DNA of 64,000 nucleotides from Limnochordia bacterium (GTDB taxonomy: Bacteria > Bacillota > Limnochordia > DTU080), in the NCBI GenBank assembly GCA_050951545.1, contig JBMNJG010000011.1, positions 1-64,000 on the forward strand. Direction: 5' to 3'. The notes beneath the pieces are model-generated. The model saw only the letters and a program-made list of their open reading frames with translations. It did not search any database and had not been told where the DNA came from. Positions 57,578 to 64,000 of the stretch are shown here, one piece after another (within the stretch, counting starts at the first letter, position 1; each line of letters starts with the position of its first letter). The position numbers and the translations under genes were made by a program.

Positions 57578-58659
57578 GGATTCTTTCGCGACATCTGGTT
57601 CACGAGATGACTATGCCCATGCTCTTTGGCGTGTGCGCCTTCACGAGCCTGTTCGTCAGTGGTGACCTCCTCAACCTGGCGAATCTTGTGGTCGAGACGG
57701 GGGCCCCCATAGCAGCTGCGCTTAAGGTTTTTCTACTGAAGCTGCCTCAGATAGTGGTCTGGACCTTCCCTATGTCCGTTTTGTTGGCCGCCCTACTGTC
57801 TCTCTCACGGCTCTCCGCCAACAGTGAGATTGTGGCGATGCAAGCTGGTGGAGTCAGTTTCGTACGCATGATAGCGCCCTTGCTGGCAGTGGCTCTGCTC
57901 GTCAGTGTAGCGACATTTGCTATCCAGGAGGCAGTGGTACCAGCGGCCAATACCAAGGCGCACCGAGTGATGGTTCAGGAGATACATGGGGGGCAGCTAC
58001 CCACAGTGACCAGACACGTCGTCGTGAAACGTTTCCAGGGCGGTGATCTTGACTGGCTTTTGTACGCAAGAAACCTGGATGGCAAAACGCAGGTGCTCTC
58101 TGACGTTACTATTATGCGAATGCAACAAGGCAAGCCACAGCAGGCAACGTATGCCGGGCGTGTGGTTTGGGAGAAAGACACCTGGTATATGGAGGAAGGC
58201 CGTACCTGCATCTTTGGTGAAGAGTCGGCCTACACCATGGAGTTTGGCTCTGGCAGGCAGCCCATAGTCTTGGGACACACTCCTCAGGAGCTAGCGGCAG
58301 TGCAAAAAGACCCTGAGCAGATGAGTCTGGCAGAGTTGCGCGAGCATATAGGCATCTTGCGCTCACAGGGTGCGGAGGTCGATGGCCTGGAGGTCAAGAT
58401 GCATCTGAAGTACGCGATACCTCTGGCCAGTCTGGTCTTTGCTTTGGTTGGAGTGCCCCTTGGCATTCAGCCGCATCGCTCGGGAACGTCTATTGGTTTT
58501 GGCTTGAGCATTATCGTTATCTTCATCTACTACACACTGATGACCCTAGGCTCTGCTTTGGGACAGGGTGGATACCTTGTACCTTGGTTAGCCGCTTGGA
58601 TACAGAACATTGTGCTCGGCGTTTTTGGTATCGTGCTCATGATACGTCAGAGACGATAG
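57574..58659 (+). CDS. LptF/LptG family LPS export permease
   Basis: [22 protein letters not shown] and LAAWIQN motifs; coupled to lptB. Confidence 0.92.
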
Positions 58660-58724
58660 GATCGCACGGACGGAGCATCTTCGCACCGGAGGCGGGCTAC
58701 ACAGCCACGAGAGGTGCGACCCTC

Positions 58725-59945
58725 ATGTCCGGTCTGCAGCTAGTTCTCGGCCTGATCACGGCCGGGGCCATCATTGCCTATATTGGCGACCGCATCGGCA
58801 TGAAGGTGGGACGAAAGCGTCTCACCCTCTTTGGCCTGCGACCCAAATACACCTCCATCGTTATCACCCTGATCACGGGTGCTCTTATCTCAGGCGCTTC
58901 GATTGGCCTGCTTACCTTCGTGTCGCGAGACATTCGGACGGCGCTGTTTCGGATGAAGGAGATACAGACGGAGTTGGCGCAGAACCGAAGGAGTCTGCGG
59001 GACAGTCTAGAGAGTCTCAAAGACTTGGAGGCCACCGTAGCAAGCCAACGGGCGGAGTTAGGCGCTATAGAAAAGAGCCGGGACAGCGCCCTGCGGGAGA
59101 AGGATCTCGCGCAAGCTCAGCGTGATCAGCTCAAAAGCGAGCATGACAAGATGGCGGCCAACCTGGGCGAGCTTCAGGATGAGGTGGAAAGCTGGAAGAG
59201 GCAGGTGGCGGAGCTACAGGAGCTCGCGAGCACATTGGAGGACAGCGTGACGCGCATGCGAAGTACTGAGCAGCAGCTGCGACGAGACGTGATCGCTTTG
59301 ACGGACCAGTTTCTGGCGTTGGAGAATCAGATGCGTGCGGGCAATTTCATCTTTGCCAAAGAGGAGATAATTGCTGCTGCAGTGATCGAGGCCAAGCGCT
59401 CACTACCACAGGTAGAGAAGGATCTCTTGACCCTACTGGAGACCGCCGATCAAGTAGCGTTAGGTCGGGGGGCGAGGATTAGCGGCAAAGAGCGGGCCGT
59501 AGTTTTGGCCCGCGACGAGTATTTTTTTGAGGCGGCGAACGTTCTCGCTGGTACCAAGGAGCGTTGGGTGGTACGCGTTGTCGCCTCCCGTAACACAGTG
59601 AAAGGGGAGCCTGTGCAGGTCTACTTCCACCTGTTCCCCAATGAGCTCATTTATCGCCGGGGCGACGTGATCGCTACAAAGGTGGTAAAAAGGGGGGGAG
59701 CGGATAATGAACAGGCACTTCTTTCCCTTTTGCAGGAAGTGAACCGGATTGTGATCAACAAGGGTATGATCACTGGTGACCGTGGCGATGTGGGCAGTGT
59801 GGCGGGTGAGCAGTTTGTTGAGGCCATTGTACGTTTGCGTCGTCTGGGGGGGCAAGCCCAAGTCTCAGCTGTGGCTGCTGATGATGTCTATCTGACAGAA
59901 GGTCCGTTACGGTTGGAGTTACGGGTGGAGACCAGCAAAGGCTGA
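58725..59945 (+). CDS. DUF3084 domain protein
   Basis: IAYIGDRIGMKVGRKRLTLFGLRPKYTS followed by a long coiled-coil. Confidence 0.9.
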   Translation: MSGLQLVLGLITAGAIIAYIGDRIGMKVGRKRLTLFGLRPKYTSIVITLITGALISGASIGLLTFVSRDIRTALFRMKEIQTELAQNRRSLRDSLESLKDLEATVASQRAELGAIEKSRDSALREKDLAQAQRDQLKSEHDKMAANLGELQDEVESWKRQVAELQELASTLEDSVTRMRSTEQQLRRDVIALTDQFLALENQMRAGNFIFAKEEIIAAAVIEAKRSLPQVEKDLLTLLETADQVALGRGARISGKERAVVLARDEYFFEAANVLAGTKERWVVRVVASRNTVKGEPVQVYFHLFPNELIYRRGDVIATKVVKRGGADNEQALLSLLQEVNRIVINKGMITGDRGDVGSVAGEQFVEAIVRLRRLGGQAQVSAVAADDVYLTEGPLRLELRVETSKG

Positions 59946-59969
59946 AGTAGTACGCAGAGGAGGGGAGTC

Positions 59970-61520
59970 TTGTTTGATATCCTGTTACGTGGGGCTCGCC
60001 TGGTAGATGGCACTGGAAATCCTTGGCGTTGGGCGGATGTTGGCGTTGTGGACGGTAAGATCGCGGCGGTAGGTCGCCTTTCATCGCTTGGAGGACAGCG
60101 CGTGATAGAGGTCGATGGCCGAGTACTGGCGCCTGGCTTCATTGACGCGCATGTGCACCTAGATACGGCCTTGTTAGTGGAACCAGATGCCTCGCCCCTG
60201 TTGGCCCAAGGAGTCACCACAGCCATTTTAGGGCAGGACGGTCTTGGTTTTGCTCCGGCCAGTCAGGCCACCCTGAGGTATATGGAGGAGTATGTGGAAG
60301 CTTTCAACCCGCCTTTCAGTTTTCAGGAAGACGCTGAAGGGCTTAGCGTGGCCCGGTATCTGACGCATTTTGACAAGCGGGTGGCCGTCAATGTAGGTTA
60401 TCTGCTACCTCACGGGACGATTCGCTACAACGTGTTGGGTGCTGCAGATCGGCTACCCGATGACAGTGAGTTGGCCACAATGGTGCGGCAGATAGGCGAG
60501 GGGATGGAGCAGGGAGCGTTGGGTCTTTCAACGGGCTTGGAGTACATACCAGCTGTCTTCTCTGATACCGCGGAGATCACTGCTCTATGCAGGGAGGTGG
60601 CCCGTTACGATGGACTCTATGTCACGCATATGCGCAACTATAAGAAATGCAGCAAGGAGGCCGTGGCAGAGGTGTGTGCGATAGCGCAAGGGGCCGATGT
60701 AGCTGCACATATCTCGCACTTTAACCTGCCTGCCAGAATCGGTCTACCCTTGATCGATGCCGCTCGGGGCAACGGCGTGGATGTCACCATCGAGAACTAC
60801 CCCTATCTCGCTGGGTGTACAGTGCTCTCGTATTTCCTACCCGGTTGGGTGTCGGAGGGCAGCCCGCGGGAGACCATGGCTCGACTGGCTGACGCCGAGG
60901 TGCGCCGACGACTGGAGCCAGCTCTAGCGGCAGTGGATTGGTCAGAGGTACTCTTCTCATACGTCCCCGGAGAGACGAACCGCGGATTGGAGGGCCAGCG
61001 GGTGGCAGAGGCTGCCGTGCAAGCTGGCAAGAGTGTGACGGATTTCGTGTGTGATCTGCTCGTAGCGACTGACCTGTGTGTGGGGATCATCCAGTTCCAT
61101 ACAGAGCGCAACGAGGACGACTTGCAGGCTACGATGCGCCATCCTGCTCAGTTGTTCGGTAGCGACGGCATTTACCGTGGACAGAGAGCTCATCCGCGAG
61201 GCTGGGGCGCTTTCGCTAGGGTGCTCGCACGTTATGTGCGAGAGAAGCAGGTGCTGATGCTATCTGACGCCATCCGCCGGATGAGCGCTCACCCCGCGAC
61301 GCGCTATGGACTGTGGGATAGGGGCTTGGTGAGAGAGGGCTATGCGGCTGATCTGGTCGTCTTCGATCCAGAGCGTATAGAGGATCGGGCCACCTTCCAG
61401 GATAGTCGACAACTGGCCGCAGGCATGGATCTGGTCTTGGTGAACGGCCGTGTTGTGTGGGATGAGGGGCGTCATACCGGAGAAATGGCTGGGCGGGCTT
61501 TGAAACGCAAGCCTCAGTAG
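59970..61520 (+). CDS. N-acyl-D-amino-acid deacylase (amidohydrolase)
   Basis: DGTGNP, PGFIDAHVH, GLSTGLEY, THMR, GSDG, HPRGWG and ADLVVFD motifs. Confidence 0.9.
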   Translation: MFDILLRGARLVDGTGNPWRWADVGVVDGKIAAVGRLSSLGGQRVIEVDGRVLAPGFIDAHVHLDTALLVEPDASPLLAQGVTTAILGQDGLGFAPASQATLRYMEEYVEAFNPPFSFQEDAEGLSVARYLTHFDKRVAVNVGYLLPHGTIRYNVLGAADRLPDDSELATMVRQIGEGMEQGALGLSTGLEYIPAVFSDTAEITALCREVARYDGLYVTHMRNYKKCSKEAVAEVCAIAQGADVAAHISHFNLPARIGLPLIDAARGNGVDVTIENYPYLAGCTVLSYFLPGWVSEGSPRETMARLADAEVRRRLEPALAAVDWSEVLFSYVPGETNRGLEGQRVAEAAVQAGKSVTDFVCDLLVATDLCVGIIQFHTERNEDDLQATMRHPAQLFGSDGIYRGQRAHPRGWGAFARVLARYVREKQVLMLSDAIRRMSAHPATRYGLWDRGLVREGYAADLVVFDPERIEDRATFQDSRQLAAGMDLVLVNGRVVWDEGRHTGEMAGRALKRKPQ

Positions 61521-61673
61521 AGACGCCGGCTACTCGAGGGCTGGGTGCCGATTCCCGCTTTGTCAGAATCTGTGCCCAGCCTCTGAGCAGGACAACAGGA
61601 GGTAGGAGCGAAATATTGAATCGTGACTAACAGGTGTTAGTCATGCACTTGGTTTGACGAGGGAAGGAGGTGT

Positions 61674-61958
61674 GGGTAGCAAGGACAGGAGTCATCTCGC
61701 GATCGATGTTAGGCAGACGGCATGTCTTCACACCAGCTGACACAGCAAAAGCCAACAGACACATCGACTCCTGAAAGGGCATACACCAGACACAGTAAAC
61801 CTTGTGCGTCTTGAGGACCAGCCGCGACGTGAGGAAACATGGACACTCACGAATGGGTGTGGGCTCTGCGCACAGATCAGAGCGCCGCCGCGGTGCTTTG
61901 AAGTCCCTCTCTATGGATCACAGATGTTGCCGCACGGTGTATGCCTTCCTTGCTTCCC
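61674..61958 (+). ncRNA. Unassigned ~285-nt multibranched structured RNA in the leader of an outer-membrane protein gene
   Basis: Nested helices: GGGTAGCAAGGA/TCCTTGCTTCCC; CAGGAGTC..GATGT/ACATCGACTCCTG; GGCATACACC/GGTGTATGCC; GAGGAC/GTCCCTC; ACACTC/GGGTGT; GCTCTG/CAGAGC. Confidence 0.65.
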
Positions 61959-61962
61959 GGCG

Positions 61963-62697
61963 ATGAATCGCTTTTTTGCAGCAGCGGCCCCCAGAAACCT
62001 CCGCAGTTTTGTTGTAGCAGCAATGGTACTAGCCGCAGCCCTCCTTCCCCTCTCACCAGTGCAGGCCTTGGCTTCGCCGGTTGCCTCTGATAGTCGTTCG
62101 CCTTATGCGAATCTCGGTGTGGACGAGCTCTCCCAGTATCTCAGGCATCAGAAGAAGCGGATGCAGGCGGATGTTGGCCTAGAGGAATCCGTTGTGAAGG
62201 GTACCTCCTCAGATAATGCTGGGCAGGTTCACATCCTAAGTGCGCCGTTGCCGTGGGGAGCGTCGGCATCAGTCAGTGCCCGTCTTGAGCCAGTCGATTT
62301 GGACAGGCTGCGGGCGATTACGGCCAATGCACCGGAGCGGGCCCGAGAACAGGAGACTCGGGTCGGCGTTGATGGAGCTGTGCGTCTGGGCGACGTGGGT
62401 GCCTTGCGCATTGGCTATGAAGTGACACAATGGCAGGATAAGGGGGCAGCCAAGGTAGCGACGGTGGCGGATGCAGGTCTGGAATACAGTCTTACTGAGC
62501 GGGCGCTGCTTGCTGCGGGCTATAATCTGGACCGAGATCACACCGGTACGACGGCTACAACGAATGTTGATGTTGGCTATGCTATCACTAAGGGTGCTAC
62601 GTTTCGTGCGGGCTACCAGCTGGTCAGCTTCAGTGATGCTGGCAGCCGCGAGTACAAGGCGAATGTGGCTCGGGCGAACCTTACGCTGCGCTTCTAG
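61963..62697 (+). CDS. Outer-membrane beta-barrel (porin-like) protein
   Basis: Sec signal peptide from ATG 61963 (MNRFF..LSPVQALA), amphipathic strands (AGLEYSL, AGYNL, VGYAI, AGYQL) and a C-terminal ..LTLRF beta-signal. Confidence 0.75.
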   Translation: MNRFFAAAAPRNLRSFVVAAMVLAAALLPLSPVQALASPVASDSRSPYANLGVDELSQYLRHQKKRMQADVGLEESVVKGTSSDNAGQVHILSAPLPWGASASVSARLEPVDLDRLRAITANAPERAREQETRVGVDGAVRLGDVGALRIGYEVTQWQDKGAAKVATVADAGLEYSLTERALLAAGYNLDRDHTGTTATTNVDVGYAITKGATFRAGYQLVSFSDAGSREYKANVARANLTLRF

Positions 62698-62712
62698 CCC
62701 GGAGGTTGCCAC

Positions 62713-62742
62713 TTGACATAGCAGGGGTTTGTGTGACATAAT
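62713..62742 (+). promoter_or_regulatory. Sigma-A promoter of rnpB
   Basis: TTGACA-18 nt-CATAAT with a TG extension. Confidence 0.7.
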
Positions 62743-62783
62743 GCCGATGCGCACCGATGGTGCGTCTGTATTGTGTCTTCATT

Positions 62784-63122
62784 CTTGAAAGTACGATGGA
62801 TGGTCGCTGGTATGTCCCTTGCGACGTACTAGAGGAAAGTCCGGACTCGGCTGTTTCGCGCAAGCGAGCAGAAAGTTGGTGCCCGGCGCAAGCCGGGGCG
62901 GAGCGATCCGACGGAGGCGAACAGAGACCCTTTGGGCTCTTATTAGCTATAAAAGGACCATAGAGACGAGCTTGTCCGGCAACGGACAAGGTGGAACGCG
63001 GTAACCCCCTCCACCGAGCAACCCAAATTATGGTAGGGGCAGCCCCAATGGGGCCAGCAGGTTCGCCTGCTGAGAGAGATGACCATCCTCGACAGAATCC
63101 GGCTTACAGTCGTGCTTTCAGG
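62784..63122 (+). ncRNA. rnpB: RNase P RNA (B-type-like architecture)
   Basis: GAGGAAAGTCCGGACTC and ACAGAATCCGGCTTA (P4); GTGGAACGCGGTAACCCC; GAGCAACCCAAATTATGGTAGGGG; P1 TGAAAGTACGA/TCGTGCTTTCA. Confidence 0.95.
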
Positions 63123-63258
63123 GCTTTGATTGGGCGCAAAGGCTGCTTGTAGGCCCGTGTGGCTCCAATGGGAGGTGCGCGGGCTTCTGCGTTTTAACAG
63201 GCCAGCAATTGGGGCTTGAGGAGGAAAGGGTAGATGTGGTAAGCTAGCGATGCGTAAT

Positions 63259-63334
63259 GAGCCCGTAGCTCAGGTGGCAGAGCACCGGACTTTTAATCCG
63301 GGTGTCCAGGGTTCGAGTCCCTGCGGGCTCACCA
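63259..63334 (+). tRNA. tRNA-Lys (anticodon UUU)
   Basis: GAGCCCG/CGGGCTC acceptor stem, CCGGA-CTTTTAA-TCCGG anticodon arm, GTTCGAG T-loop and encoded CCA. Confidence 0.97.
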
Positions 63335-63338
63335 AGAA

Positions 63339-63382
63339 AAAACACCTCCACGAAGCGGTTTTCGGGAGGTGTTTCTTGTTTG
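63339..63382. terminator. Bidirectional terminator between tRNA-Lys and the integrase
   Basis: AAACACCTCC..GGAGGTGTTT hairpin with A-rich and T-rich flanks. Confidence 0.7.
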
Positions 63383-63432
63383 TTGGGGGTGATCCAAACG
63401 GCGTTTTACGACCAAAGTACGACCAATAGAAT

Positions 63433-64000
63433 CTAGCGAGCGCCTTTCTCCTTGCTGAAAAGCTCATCGAGTTTGGCGGCGGCATCCCTCTGCAGTGTGG
63501 GCATGACGTGGCTGTAGGTGTCCAGGGTGAGGTTAATGCTAGAGTGGCCCAGACGTTCCTGCACGATCTTGGGGTGAACCCCCTTGGCGAGAAGCAACGT
63601 GGCAGCGGTGTGGCGCAGATCATGAAAGCGAATGTCGGGAAGCCCGGCTTCTTTCAGCAGAGGTTTGAACGAACGACGCACTAGATTCTGCTTGCGGATA
63701 GGGCCACCTTCGGTGTCGCAGAAAACCCATGGCGAAGCTGTGAGTCCTTCTGCTAGCATGTGTTTCCTGTGTTCACGTAGGGCTTGCACGGCTAGCTCTG
63801 GCAGAGTGATAGACCTTCGTCCTGCGGCGCTCTTGGGTTCGCCCACAACCAGAGCGCTACCCACGTTCTTCAGTGTTCGCTGCACTGATAGCGTAGCCTG
63901 TGCAAGATCAATGTCGGACCACTGTAGGCCAAGCAGTTCCCCTTGGCGCATCCCTGTTGTCGCTGCCAACACGTAGAGGGCATAGAGGCGATCCTGTTCT
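63433..64000 (-). CDS. Tyrosine recombinase/integrase, C-terminal part (5' end beyond the window)
   Basis: TGMRQGE (R), PKS (K), FHDLRH (HxxR), LGHS and DTYSH (Y) catalytic residues. Confidence 0.95.
   Translation of the reverse strand, partial: EQDRLYALYVLAATTGMRQGELLGLQWSDIDLAQATLSVQRTLKNVGSALVVGEPKSAAGRRSITLPELAVQALREHRKHMLAEGLTASPWVFCDTEGGPIRKQNLVRRSFKPLLKEAGLPDIRFHDLRHTAATLLLAKGVHPKIVQERLGHSSINLTLDTYSHVMPTLQRDAAAKLDELFSKEKGAR

Follow-up and report, generated by a model that had tools for sequence, protein, structure and literature searches.

The stretch analysed here (the window) comprises 64,000 nt from a Limnochordia bacterium (GenBank assembly GCA_050951545.1, contig JBMNJG010000011.1, positions 1 to 64,000 of the forward strand). 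An intergenic region at 61521-61962 lies between an amidohydrolase gene (59970-61520) on one side and a 244-aa open reading frame (ORF), predicted to encode a secreted, outer-membrane beta-barrel-like protein, on the other. A previous reading of the bare letters (the sequence-only reading) had proposed that a large folded RNA splits the ribosome-binding site of this ORF, with the Shine-Dalgarno (SD) sequence on one side and the AUG on the other. According to the comparative analysis reported here, 61623-62062, about 440 nt, is best explained as one conserved structured translation-initiation region. The relatives compared are the same-genus genome G002, L052 (a variant found in metagenome contigs), G003 with its near-copy L063, and G005. 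The features of the region are:

61560-61573, + strand: start of similarity to same-genus relatives in alignment A1; TTGTCAGAATCTGT in the window, TTGACAGAATGTG in G002 and L052.
61623-61644, + strand: hairpin H0 (GUGACUAAC / GUUAGUCAU, 9 bp), in minimum free energy (MFE) and centroid folds.
61645-61670, + strand: 5' strand of helix L, with a distal part GCACU.GGU (61645-61653), a middle part (61656-61659) and a proximal purine box GGGAAGGAGG (61661-61670).
61664-61672, + strand: SD-like box AAGGAGGUG, forming 9 contiguous Watson-Crick pairs with the 3' terminus of the genome's own 16S rRNA.
61674-61685, + strand: 5' arm of the closing helix P0, GGGUAGCAAGGA, from folds, RNAalifold and covariation.
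61686-61773, + strand: domain 1, closed by helix P1 (61686-61693 with 61766-61773), with the invariant blocks CUCGCGAUC (61696-61704) and GUCUUCACACCA (61724-61735).
61778-61945, + strand: domain 2, closed by helix P2 (61778-61787 with 61936-61945) and containing hairpin H.
61947-61958, + strand: 3' arm of P0, UCCUUGCUUCCC, from folds, RNAalifold and covariation.
61963-62697, + strand: gene for the 244-aa predicted secreted, outer-membrane beta-barrel-like protein, which has a typical signal peptide and ends in ...LTLRF.
62014-62039, + strand: hairpin within the signal-peptide codons (62014-62021 with 62032-62039).
62040-62062, + strand: 3' strand of helix L in codons 26-34, with an anti-SD-like CCUCCUUCCC (62040-62049), C-U-C (62050-62052) and ACCAGUGC (62055-62062).

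The two halves of the proposed site were found as described in the sequence-only reading. No start codon stands at normal spacing from the AAGGAGG at 61664-61670: within the 15 nt that follow, ATG, GTG and TTG are all absent at 4-12 nt, and the sole GTGs nearby overlap the box or stand 1 nt after it. ATG 61963, in turn, has no SD of its own and is preceded by CCTTCCTTGCTTCCCGGCG, a pyrimidine tract. An SD-like run within 20 nt before the AUG was found in none of the four lineages in which the layout occurs (see below), and those 20 nt are pyrimidine-rich in all four. The 16S rRNA of the genome ends in ...GGATCACCTCCTTTCTAAGG; with this 3' end the box of G002 and L052, GAAAGGAGGTG, forms 11 pairs, the matching stretch being also given as GAAAGGAGGUG. 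Contiguous sites occur elsewhere in the window: the neighbouring gene carries GAGGAGGGGAG 6 nt before its TTG start, and the pattern GGAGG-N4-10-ATG matches 16 times, every time on the coding strand. ATG 61963 is invariant in all six aligned rows, and in-frame extensions upstream of it are not conserved. Three other starts were considered and rejected: GTG 61804, which, although in frame, is opposed by a stop that lies 14 codons 5' of the ATG in G002; ATG 62023 (Met21), which is not conserved; and an in-frame ATG 60 nt upstream in G003, which is absent from the other lineages. At 61959-61972 a terminator-like hairpin, GGCGAUGAAUCGCU followed by UUUUUU, has the start codon inside it; it occurs in the window only and is not kept in G002, G003 or G005.

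The arms that were said to close the intervening RNA, GGGTAGCAAGGA (61674-61685) and TCCTTGCTTCCC (61947-61958), indeed pair at 11 of 12 positions, with one T-T mismatch, and looping out the enclosed stretch joins AAGGAGG-TGT to GGCG-ATG, a spacing of 7 nt. This helix, P0, is present in the MFE and centroid structures of every single-sequence fold (window, L052, G003 and G005) and was recovered unprompted by RNAalifold. Its 5' and 3' arms are GAGUGUUUGGG and CCCAGACACUC in G003, and GGUGU(C)GGGUAA and UUACCCACACC in G005. The geometry of SD, closing stem and AUG is kept in four lineages, in which the effective spacing stays at 7-11 nt while the real distance varies from 223 to 324 nt and the enclosed RNA from about 215 to about 315 nt. 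With the final G of the core (GGAGG or GGGGG) as the starting point, the distances are:

Window: real SD-AUG distance 292 nt; linkers UGU and GGCG; looped-out spacing 7 nt.
G002: real SD-AUG distance 285 nt; linkers UGUA and CGGG; looped-out spacing 8 nt.
L052: real SD-AUG distance 285 nt; linkers UGUA and GGUG; looped-out spacing 8 nt.
G003 and L063: real SD-AUG distance 223 nt; linkers UGU and UGGCG; looped-out spacing 8 nt.
G005: real SD-AUG distance 324 nt; linkers UAAA and CGUAACC; looped-out spacing 11 nt.

ACACC, noted along with the invariant blocks described below, could pair with the GGUGU linking the SD box to P0.

The two inner domains, closed by P1 and P2, came out at the positions given in the sequence-only reading. 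Hairpin H of domain 2 consists of a stem (61829-61833 with 61846-61850) and a 12-nt loop, GAAACAUGGACA (61834-61845), which reads GAAACAAGGNAA in the relatives; the stem differs among the three genera (GUGAG/CUCAC, UGGAG/CUCCA and CUAAGA/UCUUAG). Together with CUCGCGAUC and GUCUUCACACCA of domain 1, this loop makes up three blocks of 9-12 nt that are invariant across the lineages and lie in mostly unpaired parts of the predicted structure. The 3' region of the genome's own 16S rRNA (3' minor domain) also holds GTCACACCA, GTAACAAGGTAGCC and GGATCACC, which resemble the invariant blocks; the likeness extends over just 6-9 nt, is non-collinear and may be due to chance.

When about 130 nt of coding sequence is folded along with the leader, a further long-range helix, L, appears, in which the SD box pairs with codons of the gene itself. 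In the window, 61661-61670 forms 10 Watson-Crick pairs with 62040-62049 (codons 26-29) in both MFE and centroid structures, extended by pairing of 61656-61659 with 62050-62052 and of 61645-61653 with 62055-62062 to a total of about 21 bp. Helix L measures about 23 bp in G003 and 17 bp in G005, with very different distal sequences, and is like that of the window in L052. G002 and L052 differ from the window by a G-to-A exchange in the leader (GGGAAGG to GGAAAGG) and by the matching C-to-T exchange in the coding sequence (CCTTCCC to CCTTTCC). The 3' strand of the predicted helix L thus amounts to an anti-SD copy (CCUCCUU) inside the gene. In B. subtilis, according to PMC12697547, coding-region anti-SD-like sequences pair over long range with ribosome-binding sites and are otherwise depleted from genes. 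With the box paired in L, the SD is predicted to be masked by default, so that the system looks like a split site under gating and not like one that is looped out constitutively. The geometry proposed in the sequence-only reading was borne out, but that reading had missed helix L, which is predicted to mask the SD box.

Covariation was assessed on alignment A4, which contains six rows from four lineages and extends from hairpin H0 to codon 36. Run unguided on A4, RNAalifold returned H0, L, P0, P1, P2, the hairpin with the conserved 12-nt loop and the hairpin in the signal-peptide codons, 70 pairs altogether, 29 of them altered on both sides. Over all 70 pairs, 88.7% of the alignment cells are paired, compared with 79.8 +/- 0.9% in shuffled alignments (reached by 0/500) and 41-47% when the partners are slid. 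In this test both sides have changed in 30 of the 70 pairs, versus 16.1 +/- 2.4 after shuffling (0/500) and 4-10 after sliding. For P0 alone, 90% of cells are paired, versus 47-63% when slid, and its covariation score of 0.54 was reached by none of 500 shuffles (0.27 +/- 0.055). Both sides have changed in 4 of the 10 pairs of H0 (91.7% of cells paired), in 3 of the 11 pairs of the proximal part of L (89.4%), in 4 of the 10 pairs of P2 (76.7%), in 2 of the 5 pairs of hairpin H and in 5 of the 6 pairs of the signal-peptide hairpin (88.9%). For the 8 pairs of P1 the count is 4 on A4 and 5 on A3, an alignment of the 5' domain. The structure was tested on the same sequences from which it was derived. 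In A4 the registers of P0 and of distal L are off by 1-4 columns between genera, so that column-based counts understate the pairing; distal L was read from single-sequence folds only.

The main support is this comparison of lineages. Without coding sequence, the folding energy gives a modest signal (z = -2.41, matched by 4 of 100 shuffles); the fold of the window sequence including about 130 nt of coding sequence reaches z = -3.43 with 0 of 100. Folds with L gave z = -3.4 to -3.7 with 0/100 in the window, G003 and L052, and z = -2.0 with 2/100 in G005. As for the strand, the alignment tables hold 43 G-U cells versus 15 A-C cells, which favours the + strand. A minus-strand ORF at 61627-61782 was set aside, being accounted for by conservation of the DNA.

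The element has a narrow distribution. A DNA search across 41 genomes, 40 of them relatives and one the window's own, turned up the leader in a single genome of the same genus, G002, with 78% identity; in 30-column stretches the leaders of the window and G002 reach up to 97% identity, while the proteins are 61% identical. Inspection of the regions upstream of orthologs revealed the same blocks in two more genera of the family, represented by G003 and G005. Exact-pattern scans built from two invariant blocks yielded 20 loci in the genomes of 185,579 species, of which three were real (G002, G003 and G005), and 23 loci in metagenome contigs, of which four were real (the new variant L052, L063 and two identical copies). 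With the covariance model R1, strong matches (E at most 3e-27) came from 4/12 genomes of the order and from the same four among 95 of the class. Seven weaker covariance-model matches (E 4e-4 to 8e-3) were rejected as homologs and treated as chance, because six fetched loci lacked the invariant 11-mer. Altogether, the layout was found in four lineages, belonging to three genera, of one uncultured Bacillota family. The leader always precedes the same ortholog, and the family members without the leader, G001 and G004, are also without the ortholog. In the sister family f2, G006 carries the syntenic ortholog with a contiguous SD of the ordinary kind, GAGGGGAGGG, placed 8 nt before its TTG, and the intergenic region there spans only about 165 nt. 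The simplest history is therefore one in which the family's ancestor had such an ordinary site and an insert came to split it.

Neither a known RNA family nor a repeated element was recognised. As the sequence-only reading had advised, the region was searched against Rfam 15, in which, even with E allowed up to 10, nothing matched 61560-62080; over 58000-64000, at E up to 1, Rfam returned nothing besides an RNase P RNA and a tRNA. A 371-nt stretch matches the 3.64-Mb genome once, at the locus itself, which disposes of the suspicion that the element is a miniature inverted-repeat transposable element (MITE). The covariance model of the 5' domain likewise finds only itself in its own genome (next match E = 0.17), and blastn against plasmids found nothing similar. 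The suggestion that the insert is excised or spliced found no support: contigs from all four RNA-library runs cross the leader into the coding sequence without a joint. These contigs, from four metatranscriptome libraries, cover 61746-62325, 61783-62306, 61766-62173 and 61683-62058; they show continuity, and not RNA ends, levels or absence. The interval 61453-61605 lies outside the cover of all four runs, and one contig, from a relative, begins at 61644. Contig depth is about 12-22 over 61746-62325 and about 3 over the 3' coding sequence, depths that cannot rank the parts of the gene.

We take a gated split ribosome-binding site as the leading interpretation and give it a probability of roughly 0.45, that is, somewhat less than even. 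It would be of the kind known from T4 genes 25 and 38, with an insert about tenfold larger and with helix L masking the SD. P0 would loop out the two-domain RNA and thereby set the SD 7 nt from AUG 61963 (7-11 nt among the lineages); initiation would need L open and P0 closed. A kinetic logic appears likeliest: transcription would reach the 3' strand of L about 80 nt after SD, P0 and AUG, so that a 30S subunit could load while the mRNA is still being made. Translating ribosomes would then hold L open, and an idle mRNA would close it. A sensing role, setting P0 or L, may also fall to the looped-out domain, in which the three invariant blocks lie. What the analysis shows are the sequence features, the predicted helices with their covariation, the complementarity to the genome's own 16S rRNA, the single copy and the unbroken RNA-library contigs; from these we infer the use of this SD by the 30S subunit for AUG 61963, the gating by L and any sensing.

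Several points weigh against this interpretation. The SD is paired in L in every predicted fold that includes coding sequence, and the SD-like make-up of the box could persist merely through pairing with Leu-Leu-Pro codons (CUC CUU CCC). A folded domain of 215-315 nt at the spacer between SD and AUG may clash with the 30S subunit, and the looped-out spacing of 11 nt in G005 is at the long end of the working range. Both-sides changes in P0 affect 5 of 10 pairs, a count also reached by 37 of 500 shuffles. The alignment has just six rows from four related lineages of one family, and kinship inflates the shuffle statistics. The reverse strand folds equally well (z = -3.35, 1/100), so that energy alone neither proves the structure nor identifies the strand. 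Finally, as PMC4113751 reports for stabilising SD (STAB-SD) elements, perfect SDs far upstream can serve mRNA stability only.

The closest precedents are the split sites of T4, where, as related in PMC3014915 (citing Nivinskas 1999; Malys & Nivinskas 2009), the spacing is reduced from 22 to 5 nt in gene 38 and from 27 to 11 nt in gene 25. As in these two genes, the SD is too distant here and an intervening RNA structure is predicted to restore a working distance, and the arrangement is kept in close relatives and absent from distant ones. Unlike the single small hairpin described for T4, the insert here spans 215-315 nt and forms two multi-helix domains; moreover, the present case concerns a bacterial chromosome and a secreted-protein gene, has an extra helix predicted to mask the SD and is known from sequence alone. 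A bacterial mRNA on which the 30S subunit takes in a folded domain between two parts of its binding site and leaves it folded has been described for thrS; there, however, the SD is not separated from the AUG, what is split off is a single-stranded region upstream, and the hairpin is the operator for the gene's own product. A full-text literature search on split SD or ribosome-binding sites, in which the coverage of subscription journals is thin, returned only the T4 and thrS cases. The principle is already in print, but not its scale here, its bacterial setting or the additional helix that would mask the SD.

Among the other explanations, a STAB-SD-like stabiliser seems unlikely to us. The box would bind 30S only to shield the leader from 5'-to-3' decay, and the AUG would be started weakly or without an SD. 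As in cry3A of B. thuringiensis (Agaisse & Lereclus 1996, in the account given in PMC4113751), a strong box, a near-perfect complement of the 16S 3' end, stands far upstream of the start in a Bacillota leader; the host here belongs to the Bacillota, with an RNase P of class B, and the box lies near the 5' side of the conserved block. In that account, however, a STAB-SD has no role in directing initiation, and the start codon of cry3A comes with a normal SD, whereas none is present here in 4/4 lineages. Stabilisation would also leave unexplained a covarying helix that joins box to AUG, beginning 3-4 nt after the box and ending 4-7 nt before the AUG in every lineage, as well as the pairing of the box in helix L.

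An SD-independent regulatory leader or sensor is likewise doubtful. The box would then be merely a strand of L, and L and P0 would trap the AUG within a three-way junction or offer a target to a double-strand RNase, to be opened by a ligand, a protein, a small RNA or temperature. The length of L in each lineage (17-23 bp) speaks for this explanation, as do the three invariant 9-12-nt blocks in predicted unpaired parts, which are typical of binding sites. The classic case of long-range SD masking is E. coli gnd, with an internal complementary sequence at about codons 67-78 (bioRxiv 10.64898/2026.10.22.760973), and the B. subtilis anti-SD-like sequences mentioned above behave similarly (PMC12697547). 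Helix L, with its pyrimidine-rich stretch in codons 26-34, is predicted to work on this principle too. In contrast to the cases in these sources, the SD predicted to be masked here lies 223-324 nt from the AUG, and the pairing extends over 17-23 bp with lineage-specific distal parts. An SD-independent leader would, however, leave the AUG without a ribosome-docking element in an SD-reliant phylum, and the box stays complementary to 16S rRNA, including a GGUG tail outside L in the window fold. Since Rfam gave no match at E up to 10, no known sensor class was recognised either.

Coupling to an upstream small frame, in which ribosomes ending a short ORF at or beside the AUG would restart on the outer-membrane protein gene, is highly improbable. 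In genus g1 a 17-codon frame from ATG 61913 to TGA 61966 overlaps the start as ATGA and is kept in G002 and L052, and in G005 a 6-codon frame stops 2 nt before the AUG. G003 and L063, however, have no such frame, and the small frames are not conserved across the genera; they are likewise without an SD, and their conservation follows from their sequences lying inside the covarying helices P2 and P0. Very little weight falls on the idea that the RNA is the product of a non-coding gene of its own, an insert that is processed or spliced, or what is left of a mobile element, standing before the gene by coincidence, since it, although large, highly structured and more conserved than the coding sequence, is single-copy, always stands before the same ortholog and is not found where that is missing, has helices extending into the coding sequence and continuous RNA-library contigs, and matches neither an intron or ribozyme family nor a plasmid.

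The gated split site can be carried one step further, to a point that we regard as improbable. The looped-out RNA would be a sensor that switches the very existence of the ribosome-binding site: when folded, with P0 closed, it would assemble SD and AUG, and L would hold the SD until a ribosome or a signal displaces it, a bacterial 'site-assembly' switch. CUCGCGAUC, GUCUUCACACCA and the GAAACAAGG loop would then be contacts for a ligand, a protein or rRNA. If true, such a switch would regulate on another principle than the usual one, in which a contiguous site is masked.

The gene downstream of the leader looks like one for an outer-membrane beta-barrel-like protein, as judged from weak profile and model-based matches. 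Its Pfam match to OMP_b-brl is weak and falls short of the curated cut-off (E = 4.7e-4). The AlphaFold2 model, for which five sequences were aligned, has a mean predicted local distance difference test score (pLDDT) of 62, rising to about 80 over residues 130-244, with nine strands; in Foldseek it matched outer-membrane barrels weakly (best E = 9e-4, template modelling (TM) score 0.41). These weak matches do not justify the name 'porin', which had been used for the protein before. C-terminal barrel matches with identical scores (E = 4.2e-5) were observed in 365-aa frames at G000:C11:149530-149781 and G000:C14:16964-17215; the pair is either a duplicated paralog or an assembly duplication, and the C11 copy has an SLH-like N-terminal part. 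This paralogous outer-membrane protein gene (G000:C11, about 148.7-149.8 kb) has an ambiguous start and a weak SD and was left unused in the comparison.

The gene order DUF3084 gene, leader, outer-membrane protein gene and RNase P RNA is kept in G002 and G003. The amidohydrolase gene at 59970-61520 (Pfam Amidohydro_3, E = 9e-32) separates the DUF3084 gene from the leader in the window genome only; the immediate upstream neighbour in G002, G003 and G006 is the DUF3084 gene. It looks like an insertion that left the leader undamaged from 61560 onward, and the similarity of G002 to the window begins at 61560 despite the different upstream gene. The conserved box at 61560-61573 may, by its sequence, be a -35 box. 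A -10 matching this TTGACA/TTGTCA box, or one inside H0, could not be placed by eye, and a promoter scan found no sigma-70-like site upstream of the leader. A further purine-rich, SD-like run, AGGAGGTAGGAG, lies 5' of H0 at 61596-61607 and reads GGGGGAG or GGGGGAAGAG in G002 and L052. In G005 (L005/L024) a long GC-rich, terminator-like hairpin followed by UUUU ends about 20 nt before H0 of that lineage and thus leaves little space for a promoter; the G005 leader may arise by read-through from the upstream gene or from a start inside or after H0.

On the 3' side, the class B RNase P RNA (186 bits) occupies 62792-63111. Directly 3' of the outer-membrane protein gene, at 62713-62742, stands a promoter-like site close to the consensus (TTGACA-18-CATAAT, extended by TG), and a small terminator-like hairpin at 62749-62765 lies between this site and the RNase P RNA. 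A tRNA at 63259-63331, with the anticodon loop CUUUUAA, is probably Lys-UUU. It is followed by a minus-strand open frame that starts at 63433 and runs past 64000, off the window end; it has motifs that we take to resemble those of a tyrosine recombinase/integrase, and the tRNA and this frame together look like an integration site at a tRNA gene.

Whatever the mechanism, the leader is, as predicted from the alignments, an undescribed structured RNA motif backed by covariation. Since one of its three long-range helices joins the leader to signal-peptide codons, the RNA structure constrains the protein-coding sequence. Its reach so far is one uncultured family from anaerobic digesters and one gene. 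Known split sites between SD and AUG loop out less than 20 nt and come from one phage group. If ribosomes do initiate across a folded domain of 215-315 nt, the 30S subunit would tolerate a very large structure at the spacer between SD and AUG, gene finders and translation-rate models that seek an SD within about 15 nt of the start would miss a class of sites, and long 'SD-less' leaders of Bacillota would merit re-inspection.

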